This document shows, piece after piece, positions 22,319 through 63,599 of a stretch of 64,000 nucleotides of DNA. Each line of letters opens with the position of its first letter. The stretch's first letter is position 1. A program made the position numbers and the translations under genes. Source of the DNA: an uncultured Alphaproteobacteria bacterium (GTDB lineage Bacteria > Pseudomonadota > Alphaproteobacteria > CAAHEQ01 > UBA3637); contig CAKPYQ010000001.1 in assembly GCA_934203105.1 (NCBI GenBank), positions 37,270 to 101,269 on the forward strand, given 5' to 3'. A model generated the notes under the pieces. The model was not told the DNA's origin and ran no database searches. It was given only the letters and a program-made list of their open reading frames with translations.

Positions 22319-22396
<78 letters not shown>

Positions 22397-22405
22397 ATAA
22401 AGATA

Positions 22406-22432
22406 AGAGGAAGTTTTGCTTCCTCTTTTTTT
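22406..22432 (+). terminator. rho-independent terminator after the tRNA
   Basis: aagaggaag tttg cttcctctt is a perfect 9-bp stem followed by a T-run. Confidence 0.65.
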
Positions 22433-22644
22433 AACATTTAAATACATGGAATGCGATTATATTTAGATGAACTAAATCCAACAGCAGGAAAACACAAAGA
22501 TTTATTACTTCCAGAGTGCGGAGTATTTTGTGAATTGGAAAAAGTATATTTTTAGTACCAGGCTTGAAGACATAATTCTAATATATACTGATCTCTATGA
22601 GGTTATTTTTTCCTACAATATGTTAATAACGGTTATTAAAATCA

Positions 22645-25600
22645 TTACACGTCCATCACGTTGTCTGTCCAAAGTTCGCATTGTGTCATAACTGTTTGAA
22701 CGGCATCATCAACACCTTCTGGGGGATATTTATGCTTTTTTAACAATTTTTTTATCATCATACGCATTTTGGCGCGCGCTGTTTCTTTTTTCTGCCAATC
22801 TATTGTTTTATTTTTGCGCAAAGTTTCGGTGAGTTCTTTTGTAATAGCAATTAATTCATCATTTTCATAAAAATCTTTAACTGCTTGTGGACGAGCCAAT
22901 GCATCATAAAAAGCTGCTTCTTCAGCATTAAGCCCTAAATCATCACCTTCCTTTTGTGCTGTGGCAATTTGTTTTGCCAAATTAAGCAGCTCCTCAATAA
23001 CTTGTTCATTAGTCAACATACCGTTCAAATAGCGGTTCATAGATTCTTGTATCATTTCACTGAACTTTTCCGAACGCACAACATTGGTATGGCGATAAAT
23101 AGAAATCTGCTCAGCTATTAATTTTTTCAACAATTCGACCGCCAAATTTTTTTCTTTCATCTTGGACACTTCATCCAAAAATTTCGGGTCAAACAGCGAA
23201 AATTCTTCTTTTATATCTGAAAACAGATTAATTACACCATCGCTTTTTATACTCTGCCCCAACAGCTCGTTGATACGCTTATTCATTTCCGGCAAAGATA
23301 TTTTCTTTTGCCCACCGCCTTCGGTAAAACGCAAAATCATAATACGAACAGCTTCCATAAATGCTGCCTCAATACGCAATATTTCTTCAACAATAGATGC
23401 GCAAAGAGACAAAGCCTGATGTAACATAAGGGCTTGCTTAATAAATGCGTCTTTTTCTTTATTTTTCTCTCTGGCAATAATAAAGTTTGCGGCACCGCTT
23501 ATCAATCTTGCTCGGACTAAATTTGAACCGGTAGCAAATTCGCTATAATCAAAACCGTGCAATAAATCGCGACAAACCTGCAATTTTTCTTTGAATTTAT
23601 TATATGCTGTGGTAGCAATATCCATATTACCATAGTTCTTTCTGTCGCGGAGAGTATAATCATTCATCGCCTTTTTCAAAGCACTGGCAATACCGATATA
23701 ATCAACCACCAAACCGCCTTCTTTATCTTCAAATACGCGATTAACACGAGCAATCGCCTGCATCAGGTTATAACCTTCCATCGGTTTATAAATATACATT
23801 GTCGCAAGCGATGGTACATCAAAACCGGTTAGCCACATATCAACAACAATCGCAATCTTCAAAGGATCATTATTATCTTTAAATTTACGTGCTAAATCTT
23901 CCTTATGAGATTTATTACCAATAATAGCTCGCCAATCTTCTGGATCATCATTACCGGATGTCATAACCACAGCAACTTTATCTTTCCACGCGGGGCGTAA
24001 CTCCAAAATTCGATGATAAATTTTCAATGCAATCGGACGAGAATAAGCTACAATCATAGCCTTACCGGTTAATAAATTTTCGCGGTAATTTTCGTAGTGA
24101 TCCAAAATATCGCAGACAAGCGAATTGATAGTATCATCGTCGCTTAATATTGTTTCCATTTGCCCGAGTTGTTTTTTACTTTTTTCAATGACCTCTGGAT
24201 CGGCATTTTGTGCCATTAAATCATATTCAGCATCAATCAGTTGTAAAATTTCCGGTTTTAAATGAAGTTTTATCACGCGGCTTTCATAATAAACCGGACG
24301 CGTTGCACCATCTTCTACTGCTTGTGTCATATCGTAAACATCGATATAATCGCCAAATACCTCTCGCGTGTTGCGGTCATCAAGAGAAAGCGGTGTCCCC
24401 GTAAAGCCAATATATGTCGCATTTGGCAGAGAATTACGAATAATTCGTGCCGTTCCGACTTTGATATTTCCTTTTTTATCTATCTTTTCAGACAAGCCAT
24501 ATTGACCGCGGTGCGCCTCATCAGCCATAACGATAATATTCCGTCGCTCTGACAGTGGCTCAACTGCTTCCTCAAACTTTTGCATCGTGGTAAAGAAAAT
24601 ACCATTGGCTTTGATACCATTCAAAAGCTGTTTCAAATGTTCTCGGCTTGTTGCTTGCACCGGTTCTTGGCGCAAAAAATCTTTGCATTTAGCAAATTGC
24701 GTATAAAGTTGGTCATCTAAATCGTTACGATCTGTAATAACTACTATTGTCGGGCTGTTTAATGCGCTTTGCAGTAAATGAGCATAAAATACCATAGAAA
24801 GAGATTTGCCACTACCTTGCGTGTGCCAAAAGACACCGCCTTTACCATCAGTTTGCGTGGCGCGTTTGGTCGATTCGATCGCTTTTTTTACCGCAAAGTA
24901 TTGATGATAACCAGCCAAAATTTTTGACCTCCCCTTATTTTCGGCAGAAAAGCAAATAAAATTTTTCAAAATATCCAGCAGGCGCGATTTTTCAAAAATC
25001 CCATTAAAAAATGTATCAAATTGCGCATATTTGGTGTTTTCGTAGGAACCATCAACCGTTTTCCATTCCATAAAACGAGTCTCATCAGAAGTAATCGTTC
25101 CGGCTTTAGATACCGCCAAATCACTCATGACACAGATTGCATTATATATAAACATAGACGGGATTTCGTGCTTATAGTTTTGAATTTGCCGATATGCTTC
25201 CGAAGCATCTGTTTCTTCTCGCGACGGAGATTTCAATTCCATCAGCACAAGTGGCAACCCGTTGATAAACAGCAACACATCCGGACGTTTTTCGCTGTTT
25301 TCAATGAAGGTCCATTGGTTGGCAACAATGAAGGAGTTATTATCCGGATTTTCATAATCAATCAGATAAACAATCGTATCGCGTGGCTCGCCTTTTTCAG
25401 TATAGCGGACGGTAATGCCATTTTGCAAATAATCCATAAAAATGGCATTTTTTTGCGTCAATTCGGCATTTTCAAAATTTTTGAGCTTAAAAAGAGCCTC
25501 GTTTATTGCCTCATCCGGCAAATCTGGATTGATTTGATGTAGAGAATTTGTCAGTATCGGTTCATACAATGGCGAAGTAAAATCCCGCGTTTCCACATCC

Positions 25601-25698
25601 GGCCCATAAACATGTGTATAGCCAATTTCTTCAAACAACTCAATAATCGACTTTTCATACGCTTCTTCATTTACTGGATTGATGAAAGTATTTGTCAT
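22645..25698 (-). CDS. hsdR: type I restriction enzyme R subunit (HsdR)
   Basis: 1017 aa. The SF2 helicase motif I is HTQGSGKSLSM and the DEAH motif II is VMADEAHRGQ. The N-terminal nuclease region and the size are typical of HsdR. The start overlaps the upstream gene by 4 bp. Confidence 0.88.
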   Translation of the reverse strand: MTNTFINPVNEEAYEKSIIELFEEIGYTHVYGPDVETRDFTSPLYEPILTNSLHQINPDLPDEAINEALFKLKNFENAELTQKNAIFMDYLQNGITVRYTEKGEPRDTIVYLIDYENPDNNSFIVANQWTFIENSEKRPDVLLFINGLPLVLMELKSPSREETDASEAYRQIQNYKHEIPSMFIYNAICVMSDLAVSKAGTITSDETRFMEWKTVDGSYENTKYAQFDTFFNGIFEKSRLLDILKNFICFSAENKGRSKILAGYHQYFAVKKAIESTKRATQTDGKGGVFWHTQGSGKSLSMVFYAHLLQSALNSPTIVVITDRNDLDDQLYTQFAKCKDFLRQEPVQATSREHLKQLLNGIKANGIFFTTMQKFEEAVEPLSERRNIIVMADEAHRGQYGLSEKIDKKGNIKVGTARIIRNSLPNATYIGFTGTPLSLDDRNTREVFGDYIDVYDMTQAVEDGATRPVYYESRVIKLHLKPEILQLIDAEYDLMAQNADPEVIEKSKKQLGQMETILSDDDTINSLVCDILDHYENYRENLLTGKAMIVAYSRPIALKIYHRILELRPAWKDKVAVVMTSGNDDPEDWRAIIGNKSHKEDLARKFKDNNDPLKIAIVVDMWLTGFDVPSLATMYIYKPMEGYNLMQAIARVNRVFEDKEGGLVVDYIGIASALKKAMNDYTLRDRKNYGNMDIATTAYNKFKEKLQVCRDLLHGFDYSEFATGSNLVRARLISGAANFIIAREKNKEKDAFIKQALMLHQALSLCASIVEEILRIEAAFMEAVRIMILRFTEGGGQKKISLPEMNKRINELLGQSIKSDGVINLFSDIKEEFSLFDPKFLDEVSKMKEKNLAVELLKKLIAEQISIYRHTNVVRSEKFSEMIQESMNRYLNGMLTNEQVIEELLNLAKQIATAQKEGDDLGLNAEEAAFYDALARPQAVKDFYENDELIAITKELTETLRKNKTIDWQKKETARAKMRMMIKKLLKKHKYPPEGVDDAVQTVMTQCELWTDNVMDV

Positions 25699-26546
25699 TT
25701 TTTCTCCTTTAATCCTTTAAGAAATTCAGCCATTTTGTTTTTCCGTTCTTTATTATCTTTAGCTAAAACACAGAATAAAAGTAATTGATAAATTTCGTCA
25801 TATAGGTTTTCCAATTCGTTATCACTCATCTTAGCAATAATTTCTTTTTTATCTGCACCCTCTTTGTTATTATGACGTATATGAGCATTGTTAATCATTC
25901 CGCGAACGGTGGTAAAATAGGAATTGAAATCTGGTATACCGTCATCCAGCAATGGTTCATATTCTGTCGCAATGGTTAGTAATAATTTTCTTTTTTCCTC
26001 TAATTGTCCTTTTAACGATGCATGATGATATTTCAAAATAGCCATTGCTGTATCTTTTGATGAAATCTCTGCCACTGCAAACGCGGCAGGATCTTTAGGA
26101 ATAAGTAAAATTTTCTCTTCATCTTCAATACAATATTCTTTGTAATTCAAACGCTCTAAAATTAGATTCAAATTTTGCAATAGCATAATATATTCTTTGG
26201 AGCTTTGAAAATTCATATTTTGTCCCAGTCCAACTTTATTTTGAGCAAGTCGTATTAGATTAATAAAATATTCCAAAGTTAAAATTAAATCATCTTGTTC
26301 GTTCGGAAGTTTACCAATTTTCAGTTTTTTCCGAATTTCTGCACAATTTAAACATCCATTTCTTTGTTTCCATCCATGCAGTAAAAATGTATCAACAATC
26401 CCCTCAATATTTAATTGTCCTTGATGAAAATTCATTGGGTTTACATATGTGAACATAGGCAATGCAAAAAGTTTGATAATCTTTTTCATTTCTGCATTTA
26501 TATCATATTCACTGGCTAAAATTTCAAAGATATTTTTACGAGTCAT
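25695..26546 (-). CDS. hypothetical protein embedded between hsdS and hsdR (possible HEPN-like R-x6-H motif; function unknown)
   Basis: 283 aa, AT-rich, no P-loop, so it is not a PrrC-type ATPase. Its only motif-like feature is RGMINNAH near the C-terminus. The gene overlaps both neighbours by 4 bp. Confidence 0.3.
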   Translation of the reverse strand: MTRKNIFEILASEYDINAEMKKIIKLFALPMFTYVNPMNFHQGQLNIEGIVDTFLLHGWKQRNGCLNCAEIRKKLKIGKLPNEQDDLILTLEYFINLIRLAQNKVGLGQNMNFQSSKEYIMLLQNLNLILERLNYKEYCIEDEEKILLIPKDPAAFAVAEISSKDTAMAILKYHHASLKGQLEEKRKLLLTIATEYEPLLDDGIPDFNSYFTTVRGMINNAHIRHNNKEGADKKEIIAKMSDNELENLYDEIYQLLLFCVLAKDNKERKNKMAEFLKGLKEKK

Positions 26547-27754
26547 GGAGTATCCTTTTGTTCTGAAATATCCACATTATCGACATTGATTTCACCAGAC
26601 ATGAGTTTGGGTAATAATGTGTCACGAATAGAGGCTAATTTAATATTTTCTAAGGCATTAGCTGCTATTTTATGCATTAGAGGAGATACAATATTTGTAA
26701 ACTTTTTAACTGTATCTGGCAATGGAATAAATATTGGTAATCCTAGTAATTCACTTTGATTTAGACCTGGTTGAGCAGCTTTACTACACGCTAGCGTGTG
26801 CAGATAATTTTTATTTGTTTCATAACTTAAACAAAAGTAAATAAAAAATTGTGATGATATGTTTGATTTTCCACGTATAATAAACACATGCTCATTAACC
26901 GCACAAACTTTATGAGGAAATCCATCTAATGCAAGAGATACTTTTCCTGTGTATGCACCATCTTTATATAATAAAACATCCTCCGATAAGACCTTTCCTC
27001 GTTTCATTTGCTTGTAAAATTCTTCACTAATAAATTTTTCTTTACTGTAATCATATACACCAAATTTTTCAATATTTTCAGCTCCGATACTAGGTATTCC
27101 TTGACTTAGAGCTCCTCCTTTTGGTCGGCTACCACTTTCTGCAATATTAACAATATCTGCTAAAATGCCATTATTTTCAGAGCCATAAATAGATTTAAAC
27201 AGAGCCTGAGCCTGTTGTTCTAAATTATTATTTATCCTATTATTCAGCTCGATTTTATCATCCAGCACCCCCAACACCCTTGCAATCTTCTTCTGAATAT
27301 CAAGCGGAGGAACTGTGAATTCTAAATTTTTAACTTGTGTACCAGATATTTCTGCAAAAGTTGATCCTGATCCCATTCCTACAATATATTCAATGTTATT
27401 TTTTAGTAAATAATAGAAAAATTCAGAACAATATCCTTTTTTTAACACAAGACTTTTAAATCCTTGATTAGTACAAACATCATTTTTTGCAATCGCTACA
27501 TATCCAATAGGAGCTCGACTTGTTAATAAAACACTACCTTTAGGTAACATATGAGCACTACTATTTTGAAGGCCTTCTTGAGCTATATTTCGTTCACCTT
27601 TAGAAATGTATCGACTATTATAACCTGATAAATCTTTAGGAGTTAGCCATGGGATATCTCCATTCCAAAAATCATAATTTTTAGTACTAGGAGTGCCTCC
27701 ACCTATGACTTCACAAACATCACTTAATTTAATCTTCTGCCAATTACTATTCAT
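26543..27754 (-). CDS. hsdS: type I restriction-modification specificity subunit (HsdS), two target-recognition domains
   Basis: 403 aa with a duplicated TRD architecture and conserved central and C-terminal coiled regions. It is very AT-rich, as is typical of hsdS. Confidence 0.7.
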   Translation of the reverse strand: MNSNWQKIKLSDVCEVIGGGTPSTKNYDFWNGDIPWLTPKDLSGYNSRYISKGERNIAQEGLQNSSAHMLPKGSVLLTSRAPIGYVAIAKNDVCTNQGFKSLVLKKGYCSEFFYYLLKNNIEYIVGMGSGSTFAEISGTQVKNLEFTVPPLDIQKKIARVLGVLDDKIELNNRINNNLEQQAQALFKSIYGSENNGILADIVNIAESGSRPKGGALSQGIPSIGAENIEKFGVYDYSKEKFISEEFYKQMKRGKVLSEDVLLYKDGAYTGKVSLALDGFPHKVCAVNEHVFIIRGKSNISSQFFIYFCLSYETNKNYLHTLACSKAAQPGLNQSELLGLPIFIPLPDTVKKFTNIVSPLMHKIAANALENIKLASIRDTLLPKLMSGEINVDNVDISEQKDTP

Positions 27755-28784
27755 CGGCTACCTCCAAATTTTCATCATCTATGCGAATTTCTTCTATTGA
27801 AAAAGAATAATCATCACAACTATTAATCCATAGTGTCATATCAAGTTCATCTGTAAAGGATAAAGCAGAATTCGTATCAACGGTTATTTCTGCTCGTATC
27901 ATAACCTCATATTCTAAAAATATTTCATCTTCATGGTGTTGTTCTATATTGTATATATTTTTTACAATAAATTTGCTTAAAGACAAATATTTTGTATCTC
28001 CGATAATTTCATTAGAAAATGATCTTAAATCATTAAGAATATTATCTGAATTTAGATATTCTTTTATCTCGGAGTATTCTTCAGGATATTGAGGTGGAAT
28101 AGGATATGTGTCATCTTTATCTTTTGCTATTTGATCTAATTTTGAGTTTAAAATGTCTTCATTTTTTGAATTAATAAAAATAATTTCTTGATTTGGAAAT
28201 AACTTTTTATACTCTTCTTTTAACTCTTCATTGAACATTTTATCATTTGTATATAGGATGATATTTGTATCCGGATGTTCTTTTTTGTATTCTAAAATTG
28301 TTTCCCAAAGTAATGCATCTTTAAAACCCTTATCTGAGTTATTTTCTTTTCCCTCAAAAGGTGGTCTTTTATCAAATGCTCTATTTATAAGATTAAAATA
28401 ACATTTATCAGATGGAAAATTTAATTCTACAATGTTAATAGGCTTATTTTTTAATGCATTTTTATAGGCATTAATGTTTTCATCAAGATAAGTATCATAA
28501 TTTTTTGTTGTATCAACTTTATACGAATGGAAAGGAAATTTATGTTTTTTAAGCATATCTTCAAATTCTTTAACTTTTTTATGGTATGCTATAATATTTT
28601 GTTTTTTAGTTTCAGACCATACAATTTGAGGAATAGCAATTGATACAATATCATAAATATCTAACTCTTCAATGCGTGTCATGAAATTGTCAAGAGTACC
28701 ATTAAAAGAAAAATCTGTAAAATCACAGCATCGAGTATAGTCCTTATATAAAGCATTTGTATCAAAAATAAGTAGATAGTCCAT
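27747..28784 (-). CDS. hypothetical protein embedded in the R-M operon; N-terminal region with PIN-like acidic-residue pattern (tentative)
   Basis: 345 aa. The N-terminus LLIFDTNAL resembles the first PIN strand with its conserved Asp. Later acidic or threonine positions (VWSETKK, ILYTNDKMF with T-x-D) are compatible with a PIN-like fold carrying insertions. There is no database support. Confidence 0.3.
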   Translation of the reverse strand: MDYLLIFDTNALYKDYTRCCDFTDFSFNGTLDNFMTRIEELDIYDIVSIAIPQIVWSETKKQNIIAYHKKVKEFEDMLKKHKFPFHSYKVDTTKNYDTYLDENINAYKNALKNKPINIVELNFPSDKCYFNLINRAFDKRPPFEGKENNSDKGFKDALLWETILEYKKEHPDTNIILYTNDKMFNEELKEEYKKLFPNQEIIFINSKNEDILNSKLDQIAKDKDDTYPIPPQYPEEYSEIKEYLNSDNILNDLRSFSNEIIGDTKYLSLSKFIVKNIYNIEQHHEDEIFLEYEVMIRAEITVDTNSALSFTDELDMTLWINSCDDYSFSIEEIRIDDENLEVADE

Positions 28785-28792
28785 TTTAACCT

Positions 28793-29203
28793 CTATTCAT
28801 AAATTACTCTTTTTGCAATCGATATAAGTTTCTGTAATAAATGCTTTAATTTTTCTCTATATTCATTATGTTCTCTACCAGTATAATACCCGCTTATTGC
28901 AGAATGAGGCAGTGGAATATAGTTTTGATTAAATGGACTTATATAATTCTTTGTCGGATTAAAATAATCACTTATCCAATTATTACGTGGCATACAATAT
29001 CCAAAATTTTCAGATAAATATGAAGTATAATTTTGTAAATACGCTTCATCCATAAGTTTAATTGTTGATGAGGCATATTTTTCAAATGCTTCATATAAAT
29101 CTTTATCTAAATGTTCATTGGCTAATAAATCTATTCCTTTACCTAGGGCTTCAAGCAATTCATTTAGAGCCTTTTGTTTATTAGGATCCAACATAATCAT
29201 CAC
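28793..29203 (-). CDS. hypothetical protein embedded in the R-M operon
   Basis: 136 aa with no recognised motif. It is translationally coupled (ATGA overlap) to the upstream small membrane protein gene. Confidence 0.3.
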   Translation of the reverse strand: MMIMLDPNKQKALNELLEALGKGIDLLANEHLDKDLYEAFEKYASSTIKLMDEAYLQNYTSYLSENFGYCMPRNNWISDYFNPTKNYISPFNQNYIPLPHSAISGYYTGREHNEYREKLKHLLQKLISIAKRVIYE

Positions 29204-29469
29204 TTTCCCTCCGTTGATTTCATTATAATTTCTTCTTCCTTATTATTTTTTTCTTCAGCTTTTTTTATAAGTAATTCATCAAATGTTGTTTTATTTTCCT
29301 TTTGTTCTTCTACAGTTTCAGGATTAAGCTCAGCCCCACCAGGGAGTTTAGTTAAACGAGAAAGAATTTTGCGAATATCATTTTTAAAAATAAAAATACA
29401 TCCACCAACTAAAATAGGCCACGCTAGATGTTCACATAATCCTAATATGAAAGTTTGCCAAGGATACAT
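29200..29469 (-). CDS. small single-TM membrane protein embedded in the R-M operon
   Basis: 89 aa. The hydrophobic helix WPILVGGCIFIF is followed by a charged KE-rich tail. The start is 2 bp after the hsdM stop. Confidence 0.35.
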   Translation of the reverse strand: MYPWQTFILGLCEHLAWPILVGGCIFIFKNDIRKILSRLTKLPGGAELNPETVEEQKENKTTFDELLIKKAEEKNNKEEEIIMKSTEGK

Positions 29470-29471
29470 TT

Positions 29472-30980
29472 TTACATCTCCCAGCCGATGGCTTTCAGTT
29501 TGTTTTTAATCTCTTCTTGCAAAGCATCAGACTGCCTAAACATCTCTGCAAGCTCTCCGGTCAGGCGTTTCATTTTATCTTCAAAAGGTTCACCGTCATC
29601 TTTCTGTTCCTCAATGCCAACATAGCGTCCAGGCGTCAAAATGTAATCCTGTGTCGCAATTTCTGCCGTTGTTGCTACCGCACAAAACCCTTTAACATTT
29701 TCCAACTTTCCTTTTTGAAATGCAGTAAATGTGTCTGCAATCTTTTTAATATCTGCATCCGTAAAATCGCGGTGTTTGCGGTCAACCATGTAGCCCATTT
29801 TCCGCGCATCAATAAAGACTGTTTTACCTTTTTGAGCTTTGTTTTTACTGATAAACCATAACGTTACCGGAATTGTTACACTATAAAACAGTTGTGGTGG
29901 TAGAGCGATAATACCCTCTATCAAATCGGCCTCAATAATATTTTTGCGAATTTCACCTTCACCGCTTGTTTGGGTAGAAAGCGCACCATTTGCAAGGACT
30001 AAACCGATTTTCCCATTAGGTGCTAAGTGATGTATCATATGTTGAATCCACGCATAGTTTGCGTTTCCTGCCGGTGGAATTCCATATTTCCAACGCACAT
30101 CATCTTGTAACTTATCCTGTCCCCAATTAGAAAGGTTAAACGGAGGATTAGCCATAATAAAATCAAACTTTTCATGCGGGTGCAGGTCATTAAAAAATGT
30201 ATCTGCCTGATATGGCCCGAAATCAGCATCAATGCCGCGAATAGCCATATTCATCTTGGCCATTTTCCATGTATCAGCATTGGATTCTTGTCCATAAACC
30301 GATATGTGGTCGCGGTTTCCGCCATGTGCTTGTAAAAATTTAACCGACTGAACAAACATACCACCGGAACCACAACAAGGATCATAAACGCGGCAATTAT
30401 CAAATGGTTTCAAAACCTCGACAATGGTTTTAACAATGCTTTGTGGCGTATAAAACTCACCGCCTTTGGTGCCTTCATATGCCGCAAATTGTGCAATACA
30501 GTATTCATAAGTTCTACCGAGTAAATCTCTATCTCCGTTGGTATCAGACATATCAATATTGTTTGTAAAAAGGTCAACAACATTGCCTAAAACACGTTTA
30601 TCAAGATCTTGATTGGCATAATTTTTAGGTAATACATTTTTAAGCGATTTATTTTCTGCTTCAATCGCTCGCATAGCATCATCAATAATAATGCCGATTT
30701 CCGGAGTGTGTGCCGCTTCAGCAATTTTACTCCAACGTGCGGCCTCAGGAACATAGAAAATACCTTCTTCAATATATGCATCTTTGTCGTTTTCAAAACC
30801 ATCACCTTCGGCGACAAGCTGATTATAGCGCTTTTCAAAGGCCGCAGAAATATAACGCAAAAAGATAAGTCCAATAATTACTTTTCGGTAATCTGCCGCA
30901 GGAATATGTCCCCAAAGTTCACAAGCTGCACCCCAGATTTGCTTTTCAAAACCTAAATTTGCATTATTTTTACCAGCCAT
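29472..30980 (-). CDS. hsdM: type I restriction-modification methyltransferase subunit (HsdM), N6-adenine
   Basis: The N-terminal HsdM domain (WGAACELWGHIPAADY) is present. The SAM motif is DPCCGSGGMF. The catalytic NPPF lies in IMANPPFNLSNW. Confidence 0.88.
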   Translation of the reverse strand: MAGKNNANLGFEKQIWGAACELWGHIPAADYRKVIIGLIFLRYISAAFEKRYNQLVAEGDGFENDKDAYIEEGIFYVPEAARWSKIAEAAHTPEIGIIIDDAMRAIEAENKSLKNVLPKNYANQDLDKRVLGNVVDLFTNNIDMSDTNGDRDLLGRTYEYCIAQFAAYEGTKGGEFYTPQSIVKTIVEVLKPFDNCRVYDPCCGSGGMFVQSVKFLQAHGGNRDHISVYGQESNADTWKMAKMNMAIRGIDADFGPYQADTFFNDLHPHEKFDFIMANPPFNLSNWGQDKLQDDVRWKYGIPPAGNANYAWIQHMIHHLAPNGKIGLVLANGALSTQTSGEGEIRKNIIEADLIEGIIALPPQLFYSVTIPVTLWFISKNKAQKGKTVFIDARKMGYMVDRKHRDFTDADIKKIADTFTAFQKGKLENVKGFCAVATTAEIATQDYILTPGRYVGIEEQKDDGEPFEDKMKRLTGELAEMFRQSDALQEEIKNKLKAIGWEM

Positions 30981-31233
30981 TTTATCTCTCTTCGCATTGA
31001 AACTATTAATAGATTGATATTCAAAAGTACTTTTTGTAGTATATTAATTTTCAATAAAAAAGTCAAAGAAAATGTAAAGACTTACGCTAAAATCTTTATA
31101 CTTTTGAGATAAATATCGTTAAACCACTGAGAGTCGACAAAATAAAAAATACAATTATTAATGAAGTTATGTTTAAAATGCAAATTTAGGATGCCTTTAA
31201 AATCAAAACTCATCCAATTTAACGTCTTGCCTT

Positions 31234-31701
31234 TTAGTCATTGTAACAATCCGTATTTTTCAGCACTTCTTTGGAATAAGAATTCTTATAAAGATTCATA
31301 TACATATCTGCAAAATCAAGGGTATAGTTTAATTGAAAAATTATAATAAATAATGCAACATGCAACGATGATATATATAGGAAATTATTATAGCTATAAT
31401 TAAAAGACAACACATTTAAAAAGAATAAAATAAGTAAAGAAAATAGAGACATCTTTAAGAATTTTTTATTATCACTAATAAAAATCTTAAACATATTACG
31501 CTTTTTCATATAGAGATTAATGTTTTGATTAGCATAGGCAGCCAAAAGAAATGACAGTGAAAAGGCAAAAATAATAGAAACACATGTAATTGCATCAGAA
31601 AGCAGGTTATCTTTTAAAGGAAATCCCAAACTTATTATTAACAAGAATAGCAATATCCATGTTCTTATTCTACATTTTAGCAAAAATTTCTTCGATTTCA
31701 T
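31234..31701 (-). CDS. small polytopic membrane protein (about 4 TM), unknown function, overlapping the upstream gene
   Basis: The start is placed at MKSKKF, preceded by the strong RBS aaaaggaagaaggatatt. There are four hydrophobic helices. The gene is very AT-rich and overlaps the upstream 251-aa gene by 32 bp in a different frame. Confidence 0.4.
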   Translation of the reverse strand: MKSKKFLLKCRIRTWILLFLLIISLGFPLKDNLLSDAITCVSIIFAFSLSFLLAAYANQNINLYMKKRNMFKIFISDNKKFLKMSLFSLLILFFLNVLSFNYSYNNFLYISSLHVALFIIIFQLNYTLDFADMYMNLYKNSYSKEVLKNTDCYND

Positions 31702-32425
31702 AATATCCTTCTTCCTTTTCAAATTCAAAAATTTCCTTTGCCACAACGCTTTGTTCATTAATAGAAATAAAACCATCAGAGCTTTCCCCTTTTATATTGA
31801 AACTTTTTATGTATGAAGGAGACATTAATTTCTCGTATAATTTTTTTATATACTTAACATTAAGCGCTCTTTTAAAATCCATTTTTACAACGGTTGTCTC
31901 GGGTTTTTCTTTTTCTTCTAAATCATCACCCCAATGAGGATTCAAAAATTCATTTATAAATAAGTTGTTTGTTGCGGTAATAGAAATTGTTTCTATTGAT
32001 TTCACCTGTTTGATAAAATCATCAATAGAAGTAGAAACGGCCAACAAATCACAAGAAAAATTCTTGTCCGTTTCATGCAATAAATTCAAAATTATATTTC
32101 TTTTATTATGATCTGAACTCAATACCTTATTTTGATAAATCACAAATATAAACTGATGCGTCATATGAACAATTTCATCTGACAAGACGCTGTCGTCATA
32201 AATCCTTTGATTCCTATTATAGCATCTATTGGGTTTTGATTTTCCATATGACACTAAAAAAACGATTTTATCTTGATCCATCATATGACGTATCGTATAT
32301 GTGGTTTCACGCAATGGGTAATCTATGATTTCTTTGTTTTGCAGTTTTTCTTTTAAAATTCGTGTTCCTGCTCCTAAAAGGTCAACACATTCCGGAATAT
32401 AACTAAACATACGCACAGAGCTCAT
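31670..32425 (-). CDS. hypothetical cytosolic protein (251 aa), AT-rich, unknown function
   Basis: No recognisable catalytic motif by eye. A glutamate-rich C-terminus (EFEFEKEEGYYEIEEIF) overlaps the downstream membrane-protein gene. Confidence 0.4.
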   Translation of the reverse strand: MSSVRMFSYIPECVDLLGAGTRILKEKLQNKEIIDYPLRETTYTIRHMMDQDKIVFLVSYGKSKPNRCYNRNQRIYDDSVLSDEIVHMTHQFIFVIYQNKVLSSDHNKRNIILNLLHETDKNFSCDLLAVSTSIDDFIKQVKSIETISITATNNLFINEFLNPHWGDDLEEKEKPETTVVKMDFKRALNVKYIKKLYEKLMSPSYIKSFNIKGESSDGFISINEQSVVAKEIFEFEKEEGYYEIEEIFAKM

Positions 32426-32587
32426 CGTTCTAATCCTTTCAATATTTTTGGTTTCTTATCTATCTCCACTAATGTTTGATATTTTAACAATTTATTCTAT
32501 CGTATCAACATTTGATAAAAAGGTCAAGTAAATATCGAAATTTGATAAAATTTTTATGTTTTTTTGAAAACACATCAATATCAATTG

Positions 32588-33487
32588 TTACAAACAAATA
32601 TTGATTAAAAGATTTTTCTTTTCCTGATAACTTTTTACTAAACTCAAAACAAAATCGTTAATGACTTCCGCCAAGGGTAATTTCCCTTTGTCAGTATAAA
32701 TAACCTGCGCAGTAAGACCGGCAAGCACTCTTTTTATTTCTGGTGTTAATTGCCCCATAAATGACCCCATTTTTAAAATATCCAAAACAGCCTGATCTGC
32801 AAAGGGGCGAAATGGTTCAATCAAATCATCAACAAGTGGCATTGTATTTGCCGATTGGCAATGCTTTAATCCCAAATAAGGTAATAACCCGTTAGCACAG
32901 ACGCTGCGCGCAACCATTGCCCGTAAAATTGTATAAGCATAATTTAAAAGCATATTTATATCTGCCGCATTGCGATTGCGAATAAAATCAGAACCAAATA
33001 ATTCATTAAAATAAAGATGCGCCGCCTGCCCTTCATTATTTTGCAGGTCATCGTTTTTAACCGTTTTTGACAACATTTGTAAACGCACTTTTATCGTCGA
33101 GTTCGGATGAACAAAAGCTAATAACTTAGCTTGATTGCTGATCTTCATTTGCACAATTTTCTTCCACAAATTTTTACGCAAGGACTCCGGCAAGGCCGTT
33201 TGCGCTTTAATTCTGGCCGACGTTAACCAATGCCCGACAATCGGTAAAGTTATTGCGGCAGGCATATATTTATCATTGCAAAAAATAAGGCATGCTTGAT
33301 TTTCACATAAAGCATTAACGATATTTTTTGAAATCAAAACATTATGTGCGGAAATAATTAAACATAAAATGCTATCCAACGGGATCTGATTAACTTGATT
33401 GGTCCGTACATCTGTAACAATTAAAAAACCTTTCGATAAAGAAAGTTTGAAATGATCAGACGATATTTCTATTACCCGTTTTAACAT
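32588..33487 (-). CDS. cas1: CRISPR-associated endonuclease Cas1, type II-family-like, apparently solo (no cas9/cas2/array in the window)
   Basis: 299 aa. Long collinear similarity to type II Cas1 as I recall it from Neisseria: NEGQAAHLYFNELFG..F.RNRN...INMLLNYAYTILRAMVAR......LLPYLGLKH......PLVDDLIEPFRPFADQ. The putative metal-binding E, H and D positions are present. GC content is lower than in the adjacent core genes. Confidence 0.8.
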   Translation of the reverse strand: MLKRVIEISSDHFKLSLSKGFLIVTDVRTNQVNQIPLDSILCLIISAHNVLISKNIVNALCENQACLIFCNDKYMPAAITLPIVGHWLTSARIKAQTALPESLRKNLWKKIVQMKISNQAKLLAFVHPNSTIKVRLQMLSKTVKNDDLQNNEGQAAHLYFNELFGSDFIRNRNAADINMLLNYAYTILRAMVARSVCANGLLPYLGLKHCQSANTMPLVDDLIEPFRPFADQAVLDILKMGSFMGQLTPEIKRVLAGLTAQVIYTDKGKLPLAEVINDFVLSLVKSYQEKKNLLINICL

Positions 33488-33490
33488 TAA

Positions 33491-34756
33491 CTACTTTAAT
33501 CCTAAATTGTCGGCGGTCAGCAAACCGGCGCCGGATAAAACCGAAAAATAAGCCGATATTTGCGCATGCTTTGCCCGCGTCAACGATACCTTCGAATCTA
33601 ATAATTCCTGCTCGGCATTCAATACATCTAATACCGTACGACGCCCGCGTTCCTGAGCGTCTCTGACGCCTTCCAACGCTAAACGATTTGCATTGATGCG
33701 CATTTGCGCTGTTTCTATCGCTGCACCTTGCGCTTGGTAAATATTCCACGCTTGACGCAACTTTTCTAAAACAATCCGCTGGGTGTGAGTGATATTTTCT
33801 TTTAAAGCAGATGCTTCATACTCGGCCTTATCCGTCCGTGCAAAAGCCGTTCCTTTATCATACAACGGCACCGTCAAATAAATGCCGATCCGGCCGTCGG
33901 AAACTTCGTCAATCACAGGAACATCTTTTAATTTCACGGCAGACGCTTTGATATCAATCGACGGCATATAGCTTTCACGCGACACCGTAACGTTGGATTT
34001 TGCCGCTTCGTATCCCGCGGCGGCAGCCAAAATAGCCGGATGCGATTTTAGAGCTGTCTTTTCGGCGTCATTAATTGACTTTGGGAAAAATTGCCGTGTA
34101 CCGTTTAATTCAATATCTGTATAATTTTCTTGCAACGATCCGTAAATTCGGCGGAACGTTTCCAAAGCATTTTCATATCCGGCATTGGCATCAATAACCG
34201 CATACTTTGCCAATTCTAAACGCGCTTTTGCTTGGGCTAAATCTGTTTTAGTCAGCACGCCGACTTTTTCTTTTTGCTCACACAAACTGAAATACTCTTC
34301 CAATACCTTTTGGTTATTTTTATCCAAATTCAATACTTCGCGTGCATTCAAAACATTGATGTAAGCATTAACGGCTTGCAAAAACACATCTTGTTCGGTC
34401 GCATATAAATTCGCCTTTTCCAAAACCGCCATACTTTTGGCTGCGTCAATTTGCGCCGTTGTTGAAAAGCCGTGAAAAATATTTTCCGATAACGTTATGC
34501 CAACCTGTTTTTGCGTATAGTCAAAATCCGTGTTATTCAATTTTGTTTTTGCACGTGCTATGCCGGCCGTTGCCCCGACGGACGGTTGCCAACCTGTACG
34601 CGCTAAATCAACTCCGGCCGATGCGCTTTTGACTTTCTGCCGCGCGGATAAAATCTGCGGGTTGGTTTGATAAACTTGCTGCAAAGCCGAATACATATCC
34701 GCATTTGCCGGCACACAAAATAAAAAGCAAATTAAAAACAGTAAATACTTTTTCAT
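33491..34756 (-). CDS. TolC-family outer-membrane efflux protein
   Basis: A signal peptide is followed by the two-repeat alpha-helical and beta-barrel OEP architecture (YQTNPQILSARQKVKSA...; repeated coiled segments). It is the last gene of the ABC-2 efflux operon. Confidence 0.8.
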   Translation of the reverse strand: MKKYLLFLICFLFCVPANADMYSALQQVYQTNPQILSARQKVKSASAGVDLARTGWQPSVGATAGIARAKTKLNNTDFDYTQKQVGITLSENIFHGFSTTAQIDAAKSMAVLEKANLYATEQDVFLQAVNAYINVLNAREVLNLDKNNQKVLEEYFSLCEQKEKVGVLTKTDLAQAKARLELAKYAVIDANAGYENALETFRRIYGSLQENYTDIELNGTRQFFPKSINDAEKTALKSHPAILAAAAGYEAAKSNVTVSRESYMPSIDIKASAVKLKDVPVIDEVSDGRIGIYLTVPLYDKGTAFARTDKAEYEASALKENITHTQRIVLEKLRQAWNIYQAQGAAIETAQMRINANRLALEGVRDAQERGRRTVLDVLNAEQELLDSKVSLTRAKHAQISAYFSVLSGAGLLTADNLGLK

Positions 34757-61307: not shown

Positions 61308-63599
61308 TTAGCGTTCTGCGCCGGTATTTTCGATCGAAATCGAACGATTGACATCTGCCCGCGGCATACGCGCCAACTTTAAAGCTTCACGGTTGGCAGA
61401 TACTTCGGCTTGTTGGCTTCTGACCCCGGCCGCCGCAGTTGAGAAATGACCTATTTCATTTTTCAAAGCCGCCGGCGTCGTTACGGAAATCGAAAAATCA
61501 TGCGCTTGCGACAGATTCATTTTCGGACGTTCAGACAAAGGCTTTGTATCAATCGCAATCATTTGATCACGTCCGCTTTGCGTGGTACGCAACATTGTCG
61601 GATCAACTTGCAAGTCCTCCGCTTTTATCGGTTGTTCCGGCGTCGGTTGTTCCGGTGTCGGCTGCTGTGGCGTTGGTTGTTCCGGTGTTGGTTGCTGTGG
61701 CGTTGGTTGTTCCGGCGTCGGTTGCTGTGGCGTCGGTTGTTCCGGTGTCGGCTGCTGTGGCGTCGGCTGTTCCGGTGTCGGCTGCTCCGGCGTCGGTTGT
61801 TCCGGCGTTGGTTGCTCCGGTGTCGGCTGCTGCGGCGTCGGTTGTTCCGGTGTCGGTTGTTCCGGTGTCGGTTGCTCCGGTGTCGGCTGTTCCGGTGTCG
61901 GTTGTTCCGGCGTCGGCTGTTCCGGTGTCGGTTGCTGTGGCGTTGGTTGCTCCGGCATCGGCTGCTCTCGTCTTTGCTTTTGCCGACCCAATCGTTCGTA
62001 TTCCCCGCCTTTCATCATCGATTTAGACGTATCCGCTAACTTTTTCAACGTTGCATTTGTCGGCGGATGGCCGTACGTTTGGAAATATCCGTAATCTAAC
62101 ATACGATTACGCAATTCTTCCATTTGACCTTTGCTTAAATCGCCAATCATACGCCCGTCTTTATCAAACTTTAATTTCAAACCGTCCAATAACTCGGGAT
62201 GTTCTTTGCGCAATTTTGCGGCCGCTTCCGGCATATTTCCGCAGCTTTCAATAAAAAGCTGGTGCACCGATTCAAATCGATCGTGCGCGCTCATTCCGCG
62301 AGCATCAGCCACGGTTTGATCATATTGTTCTACTTTGTCTTGAATATACTTTGTTTTTTCCTTAACCTTTTCGGCGGCCAAATCCAAGCCCCATGCGACT
62401 TGGTTAGGCAAGTAAAGCAACGCGCGGATAAACAAATTTTGGAAAGCTTGTTCCGGCGATTTTGCTTTTGAAAACTCTTCGACTATTCCCCAAAACGAAT
62501 TTGCATGATTACGTTCGGCAATTTTTTCCCGTGCTTCTTCACTTAATTTAAAACCTTCGGAAAAGTCCATGCCTTCACGGACGGGAGGTTGATTTTCGGG
62601 TTTTGACGCCGGCCCCGGCACATACGGTTCGGCCGGCGTATCGTTATTGTTGCCGTCCGGAGCATAATAGTATGGTCCGTTATTGGGCACATTGCCTTGA
62701 ATAGTAATCGGGGCAGCCTCCGCCATTTTTTGCGGATCATACGTAAAGTTATCATTTTCCAAACTGCCATCCACTGTAACGCCCGGTGTTGTCGGTGTTT
62801 CGCCCGTCGTTGCCATTGATGGTGTTTGTGGAATAGCTCCGTTTATCGTCGCGCCATTTTCCATTAAGCGATCAGCTTTCGGCTTATCAGCAATACTGAC
62901 TTTGTCGGGATCGTAAGTGTATGGACTTTGCTCGTTACCGGTAACAGAGATATTGTCCTTGCTGTTTGAAAACAACGGCGCGCGATACGTCGCATCTTGC
63001 GCATTGTTTTGTTCAAACGGATTGCCCCCCAACAATTGCACGGCTTTTTGATGAGCAACCGGTTCCAATTCGCTCCAAATCGTATTCAAATTATCCATAC
63101 GATTTTTATCGTAATCAATAACAGCTTGGCGTTCATCAAAAGCTTTTTGCGCTTCTTTTAAATACATCGAATCTGTACTGATGTTTCCCGTATTCAACGC
63201 TTTAATTTCATCGGTATTCATCAAAAAATCAGCCTGTTCTTTGGTCAGGTTTTCAATATTATCAACACCATAGTGTGAAGCCGCCAAACTTTTAAACACT
63301 TCCTTTGCTTTGGAGGAAGAAAGCGTTTCCAACTTTGAAAAAGCGTCCGGATCTCGGATCGGCCGAATTTGTGCGTTCAAATCCAATAAAGCTTGCTGCA
63401 CATTCGGCGATAATTCACGCTCCGGATTGATTGTCAACGAACTCATAAATCCGATCGGCGCTTTGATAAAATCGGCATAATTTTCCGCCGAGCTTTTCGA
63501 TAAAAACTCTTTTGCTTCCGATGTACCGATTTCCTCATCGACGTGCGCCGTACTGATGTTTTTGTAATCGTCCAGCTGTTGATTGTATCCGTCTGCCAT
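61308..63599 (-). CDS. large hypothetical protein with about 22 tandem PTPEQ pentapeptide repeats near the C-terminus
   Basis: 763 aa with no signal peptide. The C-terminal stretch ...QPTPEQPTPEQPTPQQ... runs for about 110 residues and is encoded by 15-bp tandem repeats. Confidence 0.5.
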   Translation of the reverse strand: MADGYNQQLDDYKNISTAHVDEEIGTSEAKEFLSKSSAENYADFIKAPIGFMSSLTINPERELSPNVQQALLDLNAQIRPIRDPDAFSKLETLSSSKAKEVFKSLAASHYGVDNIENLTKEQADFLMNTDEIKALNTGNISTDSMYLKEAQKAFDERQAVIDYDKNRMDNLNTIWSELEPVAHQKAVQLLGGNPFEQNNAQDATYRAPLFSNSKDNISVTGNEQSPYTYDPDKVSIADKPKADRLMENGATINGAIPQTPSMATTGETPTTPGVTVDGSLENDNFTYDPQKMAEAAPITIQGNVPNNGPYYYAPDGNNNDTPAEPYVPGPASKPENQPPVREGMDFSEGFKLSEEAREKIAERNHANSFWGIVEEFSKAKSPEQAFQNLFIRALLYLPNQVAWGLDLAAEKVKEKTKYIQDKVEQYDQTVADARGMSAHDRFESVHQLFIESCGNMPEAAAKLRKEHPELLDGLKLKFDKDGRMIGDLSKGQMEELRNRMLDYGYFQTYGHPPTNATLKKLADTSKSMMKGGEYERLGRQKQRREQPMPEQPTPQQPTPEQPTPEQPTPEQPTPEQPTPEQPTPEQPTPQQPTPEQPTPEQPTPEQPTPEQPTPQQPTPEQPTPQQPTPEQPTPQQPTPEQPTPQQPTPEQPTPEQPIKAEDLQVDPTMLRTTQSGRDQMIAIDTKPLSERPKMNLSQAHDFSISVTTPAALKNEIGHFSTAAAGVRSQQAEVSANREALKLARMPRADVNRSISIENTGAER
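61630..61965. repeat. about 22 x 15-bp tandem repeat (YGGYTGYTSYGGYGT on the plus strand) encoding PTPEQ/PTPQQ
   Basis: Read directly from the sequence. The unit is nearly perfect with wobble variation. Confidence 0.85.

Follow-up and report, generated by a model that had tools for sequence, protein, structure and literature searches.

The window, which is the whole 64,000-nucleotide stretch of DNA analysed here, carries two overlapping minus-strand genes, designated A and B, that lie between a cas1 gene and a type I restriction-modification (R-M) operon. The features of the locus are:

22645..30980, minus: adjacent type I R-M operon, recognised by Pfam and PADLOC matches and containing the next seven genes
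22645..25698, minus: hsdR
25695..26546, minus: gene for a 283-aa protein
26543..27754, minus: hsdS
27747..28784, minus: PIN_12 gene
28793..29203, minus: gene for a 136-aa protein
29200..29469, minus: gene for an 89-aa protein
29472..30980, minus: hsdM
31203..31241, minus: hsdS stub of 12 codons (MTKRQDVKLDEF, then stop), its ATG overlapping the B stop by 8 bp
31234..31701, minus: gene B, 155 aa, basic (pI 9.5), four transmembrane (TM) segments; putative RexB-like effector
31702..31720, minus: ribosome-binding (Shine-Dalgarno-like) stretch GAAAAGGAAGAAGGATATT, 5' of the B start
31670..32425, minus: gene A, 251 aa, 29 kDa, pI 5.6, ATG start, soluble; putative DNA-binding sensor with a predicted RexA/RdgC-type two-domain fold
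32481..32508, minus: promoter-like site (TTGATA, 16-nt spacer, TG-TAAAAT) about 56 nt 5' of the A start, from a consensus scan (10/12 matches)
32588..33487: type II Cas1 gene, neighbour of A

Inspection of the reading frames together with hydropathy analysis bore out the layout given in the original prediction, a 251-aa protein whose gene overlaps that of a four-TM protein by 32 bp. Four hydrophobic segments were detected in B (residues 12–28, 37–53, 84–100, and 108–124) and zero TM segments in A. The ATG at 31701 was taken as the start of B, the mechanical ORF list running the frame to 31776; this ATG is preceded by GAAAAGGAAGAAGGATATT, the ribosome-binding site that had been claimed for B. 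The stretch lies inside the coding sequence of A and doubles as codons for the A motif EKEEGYY, which is conserved in the A-family alignment. The claim that the pair is among the most AT-rich sequence of the window also held, with a GC content of 27.9% versus 41.5% for the window (2.5th percentile of equal-sized windows). The lowest-GC single stretch in the window (25%) lies in the neighbouring PIN gene. The number of promoter-like sites between 30800 and 32800 did not exceed shuffle expectation, and the assignment of the site at 32481..32508 to A-B is therefore tentative. Nucleotide homology with other loci begins only about 39 bp 5' of A, placing this site outside the shared cassette. No terminators were found in 30800–32800.

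Neither A nor B matched any family in Pfam, NCBIfam, PADLOC, or PHROGs, in agreement with the description of A as a protein with no recognisable domain. No component HMM of PADLOC-DB v2, Kiwa included, matched A, B, or the partner proteins of two distant loci (L026 and L028), and a PADLOC search with 40 A-family members returned scattered non-significant matches only (best 0.0023, 2 members). Pfam searches with about 40 distant relatives of A disclosed no family, and profile searches of PDB sequences with three A-family alignments gave no meaningful match.

The gene pair itself is well conserved. The original prediction had asked for conservation of the pair across genomes, and each of the 14 distinct loci examined had A and B side by side; identity of A to the window copy spanned 85% to 19% among them. 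In each of these loci B was the downstream neighbour of A, had four TM segments, and measured 144 to 167 aa; A was never seen without B. The 32-bp overlap of the window copy recurs in 9 other close-family loci, and the remaining loci overlap by 23, 11, 8, or 4 bp. Pairwise identities of A and B are correlated (Spearman 0.97). A and B are thus obligately linked and coupled in translation, they co-evolve, and the pair moves as a discrete cassette of approximately 1.2 kb. Its distribution is patchy and horizontally mobile, the close family being present in only 5 of 185,579 species-representative genomes and distant relatives reaching Firmicutes such as Weissella viridescens (CP199914). Searches for the family in viral and plasmid sequences were negative. 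They comprised tblastn with A and B as queries against 50,697 phage genomes, tblastn with A, B, and two distant relatives of A against collections of phages and plasmids, and a scan of IMG/VR for homologues.

Both genes are under purifying selection, with dN/dS of 0.06–0.17 for A and 0.11–0.27 for B (Nei-Gojobori, against the 7 relatives with unsaturated dS), and such low ratios argue that neither is a chance ORF. Long chance ORFs do arise in AT-rich DNA, and the window cassette has relics on its flanks (the solo Cas1 and the hsdS stub), so that the two frames could have been read as non-functional remnants or annotation artefacts. The conservation data already refute that reading: neither ORF is disrupted in any of the 14 loci, dN/dS is far below 1 with dS near saturation, and protein conservation with preserved lengths reaches down to 19–26% identity.

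Comparison of the genomic surroundings revealed where the pair usually resides. In 11 of 15 contexts it is flanked by hsdM and hsdS of a type I R-M operon (L001, L002, L005, L011, L012, L013, L015/16, L018, L019, and L028). The embedded copies are on the same strand as their neighbours, with a gap of 2–4 bp from hsdM to A and an overlap of 8–23 bp between B and hsdS. The slot is identical even though its flanking hsdM genes are of different lineages (29–77% identity), and a relative with only 22–26% identity, L028, occupies it as well. Within these operons the pair is next to known passengers of the toxin or abortive-infection type, namely Fic, RhuM, AAA_14-DUF4143, NTase, and PIN genes. Mu-like tail genes border the R-M operon of L005. 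Copies without type I R-M genes nearby were found in L014 and L021 and their relatives (serine-recombinase elements), in L023, and in L026, a Weissella defence island in which McrB_N-NOV_C, an Nhi/AbiO-like gene, and DRT2 stand alongside the pair. The settings of the pair are thus almost exclusively R-M operons, mobile elements that bear a recombinase, and defence islands, and it sits in AT-rich islands beside a tRNA gene. Location within type I R-M operons has been documented as a hallmark of defence genes (PMC11411939; Payne et al. preprint).

The window copy departs from this arrangement, as the pair lies upstream of hsdM with 253 bp between them. The operon of L013 is of the same type as that of the window (hsdM 77% and hsdR 70% identical) and carries A-B between hsdM and hsdS. 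The 12 codons that follow B in the window were recognised as an hsdS stub by the likeness of their translation to the N-terminus of the L013 HsdS (MTKWQEVKLGD...), and the 8-bp overlap between B and hsdS is also found in L002, L005, and L013. The stub is a relic of the canonical order hsdM-A-B-hsdS, and the position upstream of hsdM is thus derived. The neighbours named in the original prediction, a solo Cas1 and a type I R-M operon, are indeed present: the window lacks a CRISPR repeat array, Rfam gave no CRISPR or tracrRNA match there, and neither cas9 nor cas2 was among the ORFs checked. The location between Cas1 and the R-M operon, although true of the window, is incidental, because Cas1 adjoins the pair in this species only and the usual home of the pair is the hsdM-hsdS slot of type I R-M operons. 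A CRISPR-associated role for A (Csn2- or Cas2-like) was considered and rejected, given the many A-B loci without cas genes and the restriction of the Cas1 neighbour to this species.

To compare A with known structures, the model of A was searched with Foldseek against 350,542 PDB chains. The top match was lambda RexA (8twq_B; E 1.7e-5, probability 1.00, 260 columns), followed by RdgC (PDB: 2OWL), which points to the fold class RexA/RdgC/IML3/CHL4; these structural neighbours are the set published for RexA itself (PMC11077077). The model consists of an N-terminal beta-rich domain, a domain of a sheet plus four helices (approximately residues 134–235), and a C-terminal helix. This order matches the published layout of RexA, in which residues 1–139 plus 248–279 form a globular domain and residues 143–234 a dimerisation domain. 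A is accordingly predicted from its model to adopt the RexA/RdgC two-domain fold and to belong to that structural superfamily. The resemblance is confined to the fold. The Pfam RexA model (PF15969), which scores lambda RexA at 1e-97 as a positive control, matched neither A nor 39 distant relatives at E<=0.1; alignment of the A-family profiles with a 23-member RexA alignment by hhalign in local, global, and low-mact modes gave non-significant probabilities of 1.4–3.2%, though the alignment was roughly collinear; and cross hmmsearch between A family and RexA stayed below 9 bits. A is also acidic whereas RexA is basic (pI 5.6 versus 8.6), and it lacks most of the long C-terminal helix of RexA.

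The partner protein B, a small inner-membrane protein, was modelled by AF2 as a helical bundle (pLDDT 74.9) and resembles RexB in its gross features. Their lengths (155 versus 144 aa), pI values (9.5 versus 9.3), and TM segments (those of RexB at 9–25, 50–66, 84–100, and 117–133) are comparable, and both have a basic central loop, a predicted N-in/C-in topology, and a gene directly downstream of A or RexA. The Rex-type architecture, with a four-TM partner encoded directly 3' of the RexA-like gene, was seen in 14/14 loci. Small four-TM proteins are common, and the shared topology is for this reason weak evidence of kinship. The Pfam RexB model (PF15968; 8.5e-92 for lambda RexB as a positive control) matched neither B nor six B homologues at E<=1, hhalign of B with RexB aligned only 9 columns at 0.3% probability, and RexB was absent among the 50 matches listed for the B model in a Foldseek search of BFVD, the best viral match being an uncharacterised Siphoviridae protein (E 0.075).

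Given the lambda RexA fold predicted for A, we favour reading the pair as a sequence-divergent, two-gene member of the RexAB-type phage-exclusion (abortive-infection) modules, a reading to which we assign a probability of roughly 0.55, and the best reading of its setting is that A-B is carried as a passenger in R-M operons. By analogy with the RexAB systems of lambda and Pseudomonas putida, A would dimerise and bind DNA or an intermediate of phage replication or recombination, and the activated A would then engage B. B would in turn permeabilise or depolarise the membrane, so that the infected cell is arrested and phage growth is blocked. The location in a type I R-M operon would lead to co-expression with the R-M genes, so that phages escaping restriction would meet a second line of defence. 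A rearrangement has moved the window cassette upstream of hsdM, where it appears to use its own promoter.

This outcome alters the original prediction in part. The idea of a sensor paired with a membrane effector in an abortive-infection-type module is favoured by the strict pairing and by the R-M, mobile, and defence contexts, but the architecture is not wholly undescribed, in view of the lambda RexA fold predicted for A. A match to a known prophage family had been named as grounds for abandoning the defence idea; such a match was obtained at the level of the fold only (RexA), with no match to a sequence family, and it refines the idea rather than refuting it, because the Rex family is itself a defence family.

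The regularity of the hsdM-hsdS slot could alternatively mean that the pair serves the restriction enzymes directly. A-B would then be an accessory or guard dedicated to the type I R-M complex and not an autonomous Rex-like system, with A contacting HsdM/HsdS or DNA undergoing translocation or cleavage and triggering B once anti-restriction proteins block restriction or it is overwhelmed; the PrrC anticodon nuclease, which is kept latent by EcoprrI and is almost exclusively embedded in type I R-M loci, offers a precedent. We regard this as unlikely, and we hold similarly little confidence in the version in which a RexAB-type sensor and effector are wired to the type I restriction enzymes as a Rex-like guard analogous to PrrC. 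In that version, A would respond to the condition of the Hsd complex (an HsdMSR that is stalled or inhibited) or to DNA generated by restriction (linear fragments) and open B, shutting down the cell when restriction fails; if true, it would explain why the slot is kept across lineages diverged to about 22% identity. The 11 of 15 contexts between hsdM and hsdS, L028 among them, the very tight junctions on both sides, and the constancy of the slot despite differing hsdM lineages all speak for an accessory role. Against it, the pair also occurs where type I R-M genes are not nearby, the window copy stands 253 bp from hsdM with a promoter-like site of its own, and the same slot houses many unrelated passengers.

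The roles of the two proteins could also be reversed, as in mycobacteriophage Butters, where the cytosolic RexA-like gp30 is the effector and is restrained by the membrane protein gp31 (PMC12894663). A would then be a toxic or antiviral effector sequestered at the membrane by B, or the two would form a toxin-antitoxin (addiction) pair of toxin B and neutraliser A, in either case mainly stabilising the R-M island or mobile element. Some neighbouring passengers in its operons (Fic, PIN, NTase/HEPN-like) are typical components of toxin-antitoxin systems, and the pair rides recombinase-bearing elements; yet neither A nor B is similar to known toxin or antitoxin families, and the soluble-then-membrane gene order and tight translational coupling are equally consistent with a lambda-type Rex system, which leaves this arrangement doubtful in our estimation. 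A could instead bind DNA in the manner of RdgC and have a housekeeping or regulatory task (recombination, restriction alleviation, or operon expression), next to an unrelated membrane anchor B and with no direct anti-phage role. This is quite improbable. A always accompanies B in the loci examined, and a housekeeping role does not fit a distribution that is patchy, mobile, and bound to AT-rich islands beside a tRNA gene. RdgC itself, the second-best structural match to A, is a stand-alone housekeeping gene product of approximately 300 aa with no membrane partner and is not island-borne.

If the RexAB-type reading is correct, Rex-type modules extend beyond phage immunity regions, and the catalogue of R-M-embedded defences gains a new cassette, in gut Alphaproteobacteria. 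The pair would also provide a small system, free of a repressor, in which to study the gating of a four-TM effector by a RexA-fold protein and whether that protein cooperates with restriction. Current defence-finder HMMs miss the predicted Rex-fold A-B family, and structure-based annotation can recover systems of this kind.

Lambda Rex was the first abortive-infection system to be discovered. Neither sequence nor profile comparison detected any similarity of A and B to lambda RexA and RexB (PF15969, PF15968; PDB: 8TWQ), and the two genes overlap by 32 bp where lambda rexA and rexB are separated by a 15-bp gap. Lambda Rex is encoded in the prophage immunity region and the known Rex-type systems are prophage-borne, typically beside an immunity repressor, whereas A-B has no cI/cro neighbours and its loci are type I R-M operons, elements that carry a recombinase, or defence islands on the chromosome. 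Kiwa likewise combines a four-TM protein (KwaA) with a soluble DNA-binding protein (KwaB); its gene order is opposite to that of A-B, and with no PADLOC Kiwa match and no Kiwa structure among the PDB matches it was rejected as an identification.

Only five Rex-like systems have been described, all of them prophage-borne (PMC12894663). PP_5643/PP_5644 of P. putida prophage P1 is an experimentally validated RexAB-type system in which PP_5643 gives a 98% HHpred match to RexA (PMC12894663); compared with A-B by description, it differs in that A gives no such match and in that A-B is not prophage-encoded. The actinobacteriophage pairs Sbash gp30/31, CarolAnn gp44/43, and Butters gp30/31, which exclude heterologous phages, share with A-B the combination of a cytosolic and a four-TM membrane protein. 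Their RexA-like components dimerise and bind DNA non-specifically, but they are larger (337–372 aa, versus 251 aa for A) and prophage-borne, while A was absent from the phage genomes searched. The PrrC anticodon nuclease (EcoprrI), the GmrSD-like type IV restriction system TgvAB (V. cholerae VPI-2), and the Campylobacter rlo genes are unrelated to A-B in protein and mechanism and are not soluble-plus-four-TM pairs; they resemble A-B in lying inside a type I R-M operon and being co-expressed with hsd genes, a case of "guilt by embedding".

Genes A and B lie on the minus strand, and a window-specific spacer upstream of A holds a promoter-like site:

31670..32425, minus strand: gene A, ORF of 251 aa
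31701 (ATG) to 31234, minus strand: gene B, 155 aa from this start
32508 to 32481, minus strand: promoter-like site (TTGATA, 16-nt spacer, TG-TAAAAT)

Mechanical calling extends the ORF of B back to 31776; biologically, the sensible start is the ATG at 31701, with GAAAAGGAAGAAGGATATT ahead of it. With B beginning there, the 3' end of A overlaps it by exactly 32 bp, in agreement with the original prediction. The four-TM assignment likewise stood, with hydrophobic segments of B at residues 12-28, 37-53, 84-100, and 108-124 and a basic N-terminus and central loop; a hydropathy scan revealed no such segment in A. The pair had been described as among the most AT-rich sequence of the window, and its GC content is indeed 27.9% versus 41.5% for the window, the 2.5th percentile among equal-sized windows. 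Neither protein matched Pfam, PADLOC, NCBIfam, or PHROGs, in agreement with the claim that the 251-aa protein has no recognisable domain, and the PADLOC v2 models fail to detect the pair. Promoter-like sites around A-B showed no enrichment over shuffled sequence. Two 18-bp direct repeats, 30 bp apart and each containing a palindrome (TATCAAcatTTGATA and TATCGAaatTTGATA, 32503..32550), overlap the -35 element of the site upstream of A and could be a candidate operator; no regulator gene is evident close to them.

Homology searches disclosed 27 close homologues of A (53-100% identity), every one about 251 aa, while 1.84 billion cluster representatives, searched exhaustively with a profile, yielded 46 clusters, mostly of 250-280 aa, with identity to A down to about 16-24%. 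Neighbourhoods were obtained for 15 distinct contexts, and 14 distinct loci (handles L001 to L035 denote loci bearing A-B relatives) were analysed gene by gene. Directly downstream of A in 14/14 loci is a gene of 144-167 aa with a four-TM product homologous to B (47-71% identity in the close family, 24-29% in three distant loci), so the pair is conserved as such. Where TM2 begins, B and its homologues have in common the motif SD-x-IT-x2-SI-x2-(A/G)F. The start/stop overlap of A and B is 32 bp in 10 of the 14 loci and 23, 11, 8, or 4 bp in the remaining four; gene callers shortened B in L005 and L011, yet both loci keep the complete reading frame that begins at the conserved ATG. In pairwise comparisons of loci, the identity of A correlates with that of B (Spearman 0.97). 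Relative to the window copy, A has a dN/dS of 0.06-0.17 and B one of 0.11-0.27, at a dS close to saturation; A and B are therefore functional genes evolving as a unit. This is an obligate two-gene architecture. Nucleotide homology between the window and the other loci is restricted to about 32464..31256, beginning about 39 bp ahead of A and stopping shortly before the end of B; what moves is therefore the 1.2-kb cassette itself. Among 185,579 species-representative genomes, only 5 carry the close family, each of them from an uncultured alphaproteobacterium of gut or rumen, and searches of phage, plasmid, and IMG/VR collections did not find it.

A type I R-M operon encloses A-B, with hsdM on one side and hsdS on the other, in 11 of the 15 contexts (L001/L022, L002-4/L020, L005/6, L011, L012, L013, L015/16, L018/L030, L019, L028/29, and L031, the last counted from a partial contig on which only B followed by hsdS is visible). 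The slot is also occupied in the L028 lineage, whose A is about 22-26% identical to that of the window, and the hosting hsdM genes come from different lineages (29-77% identity to the window hsdM). Junctions are tight, with an hsdM-to-A gap of 2-4 bp and a B/hsdS overlap of 8-23 bp. The co-passengers in these operons, Fic, RhuM, AAA_14-DUF4143, and NTase/NTase_sub_bind, and PIN_12 in the window, are known toxin or abortive-infection-type passengers. In L005 (1..5200), the operon carrying A-B lies directly downstream of Mu-like baseplate/tail genes and a Dam methylase; because it abuts these genes, the operon may be prophage-adjacent cargo in at least this one lineage.

The window itself departs from this arrangement, and the following features surround the pair:

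22319-22393, plus strand: tRNA gene, bounding the AT-rich island at its hsdR end
25695..26546, minus strand: uncharacterised 283-aa passenger between hsdS and hsdR
27747..29469, minus strand: three passengers between hsdM and hsdS (89-aa, 136-aa, and 345-aa PIN_12-domain proteins)
31241 to 31203, minus strand: hsdS stub of 12 codons (MTKRQDVKLDEF, then stop), directly after B
32588..33487, minus strand: full-length type II Cas1, 299 aa (TIGR03639, 7.9e-75), upstream neighbour of A

The R-M operon downstream reads hsdM, 89-aa, 136-aa, PIN_12, hsdS, 283-aa, hsdR. The 89-aa passenger has a hydrophobic N-terminus, the 136-aa passenger gave no significant match, neither it nor the PIN_12 protein matched PADLOC, and the 283-aa protein has no family match in Pfam or PADLOC. 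The latter keeps its slot in L002 (57% identity) and L013 (43%), accompanying A-B in three loci. The stub overlaps the B stop codon by 8 bp, the same as the B/hsdS overlap in L002, L005, and L013, and aligns with the HsdS N-terminus of L013 (MTKWQEVKLGD...). It is a relic of a time when the cassette lay between hsdM and hsdS. The closest R-M operon, that of L013 (hsdM 77%, hsdR 70% identical), runs hsdM-A-B-hsdS-282aa-hsdR, as compared with A-B-(hsdS stub)-hsdM-passengers-hsdS-283aa-hsdR here; the stub and the L013 order thus identify the window order as the product of rearrangement.

A-B lies within an AT-rich island at about 22.4 to 33.5 kb (22400..33500, about 11 kb, 25-39% GC versus about 42% in the flanks). 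The tRNA gene at the hsdR end of this stretch suggests a tRNA-associated genomic island carrying the R-M operon, A-B, and Cas1. The Cas1 start lies 3 bp beyond a TolC-like OEP gene. Neither a CRISPR array nor an Rfam match to CRISPR or tracrRNA exists in the window, and the ORFs checked include no cas9 or cas2; Cas1 is therefore solo, as had been stated. In a strain variant (L008), Cas1 is truncated to 225 aa and follows fragments of NUDIX and epimerase genes. The solo Cas1 is probably all that is left of a type II CRISPR locus that has decayed. It stands next to A-B in this species only; the adjacency is incidental and has no bearing on the reading of the pair. Elsewhere in the window, a tandem array of about 30 units with a 15-bp period (61568..62017) lies inside a 763-aa ORF (61308..63599, minus strand), so that the encoded protein would contain a region of pentapeptide repeats.

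In the other contexts, type I R-M genes are absent. There is evidence that integrative elements carry the cassette too: A-B adjoins a large serine recombinase in L014, in L021, which has a tyrosine integrase in addition, and in the L021 relatives L032, L034, and L035. This sub-lineage (about 70% identity) spans several human-gut metagenome contigs. Other R-M genes accompany A-B here: L014 has a C5 methyltransferase and L021 an MmeI-like enzyme. At L023, A-B adjoins maf, followed by a 326-aa gene. A distant pair occupies a chromosomal island of Weissella viridescens (L026; CP199914, 977989-994810), where A' of 273 aa and B', a 144-aa four-TM protein, overlap by 8 bp; the island also carries McrB_N-NOV_C, an S41 peptidase, an Nhi/AbiO-like helicase, and DRT2. 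This cultivable host suits experiments.

To evaluate the fold of A, an AlphaFold2 model was built from 19 homologues (mean pLDDT 74.7, pTM 0.60). Foldseek against the PDB placed lambda RexA (8TWQ) chain B first (E 1.7e-5, probability 1.00, 260 columns) and chain A second, and beyond these chains nothing had an E below 1e-3. The list of structural neighbours is the same as that published for RexA by Adams et al. 2024 (PMC11077077), where RexA comprises a globular domain (1-139 plus 248-279) and a dimerisation domain (143-234). In the model, residues 1 to about 125 form an N-terminal part in which a multi-stranded sheet is combined with helices; four helices and another sheet follow at about 134-235, and a helix closes the C-terminus, an element order that fits the RexA layout. 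The global TM-score is low (0.31) and the rmsd high, consistent with a different inter-domain orientation in the model, whose limits also contribute. This orientation is variable in RexA. No link shows at the level of sequence: when the A family was compared by hhalign with an alignment of 23 RexA family members, the probability was only 1-3%, with a weak, collinear alignment, and the Pfam RexA model was silent for A and 39 distant relatives. The predicted fold of A is of the RexA/RdgC type.

B was modelled as a helical bundle (pLDDT 74.9). It resembles lambda RexB in TM number and spacing, its basic central loop, its place downstream of a soluble partner, length (155 versus 144 aa), and pI (9.5 versus 9.3). 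Homology to RexB was not detected by the Pfam RexB model, hhalign, or Foldseek against BFVD (50 matches listed), where the best match was A0A8S5S8H0, an uncharacterised 172-aa protein of gut Siphoviridae sp. ctylc9 (E 0.075, TM 0.55, Foldseek probability 0.99). The topology of B is RexB-like and the genomic neighbourhoods are of defence type.

With the obligate pairing, the predicted fold of A, and the topology of B with these neighbourhoods, the explanation best supported is that A-B forms a sequence-divergent RexAB-type module with a putative Rex-type mechanism, to which we assign a probability of roughly 0.55; this reading depends on a predicted structure of moderate confidence. Context makes a broader reading clearly more probable, and indeed likely: some sort of defence or toxin-type passenger. 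Defence genes tend to nest in type I R-M operons, for example TgvAB (PMC11411939), and the R-M-embedded PrrC belongs to the nesting that underlies "guilt by embedding" (Payne et al.); the placement of A-B fits this tendency. Embedded in this way, a Rex-type module would act as a second-line abortive system co-expressed with restriction.

A PrrC-like guard dependent on the Hsd complex is favoured by the persistence of A-B in the hsdM-hsdS slot and by its tight coupling there, but the stand-alone copies speak against it, and we regard this explanation as improbable. Equally doubtful is a reversed logic of the kind in Butters, a mycobacteriophage with a Rex-like pair, or a role in addiction or as a toxin-antitoxin pair; an RdgC-like function of A in DNA binding, outside defence, seems more improbable still. 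The possibility that A and B are spurious ORFs was rejected.

Of the proposed undescribed defence system, the defence-like module survives, while its architecture is not unknown given the RexA-type predicted fold of A. We found no report in the open-access literature of a Rex-fold module embedded in R-M operons, and only five Rex-like systems have been described so far, all prophage-encoded (PMC12894663). A-B is a solid, testable candidate that would take Rex-type systems beyond prophages and into R-M operons. The pair appears to resemble Rex systems in looks and presumed working, but falls outside the RexA and RexB sequence families and the "prophage immunity region"; the label of RexAB orthologue is therefore inappropriate, and A-B is better regarded as a new Rex-type variant, related by structure.
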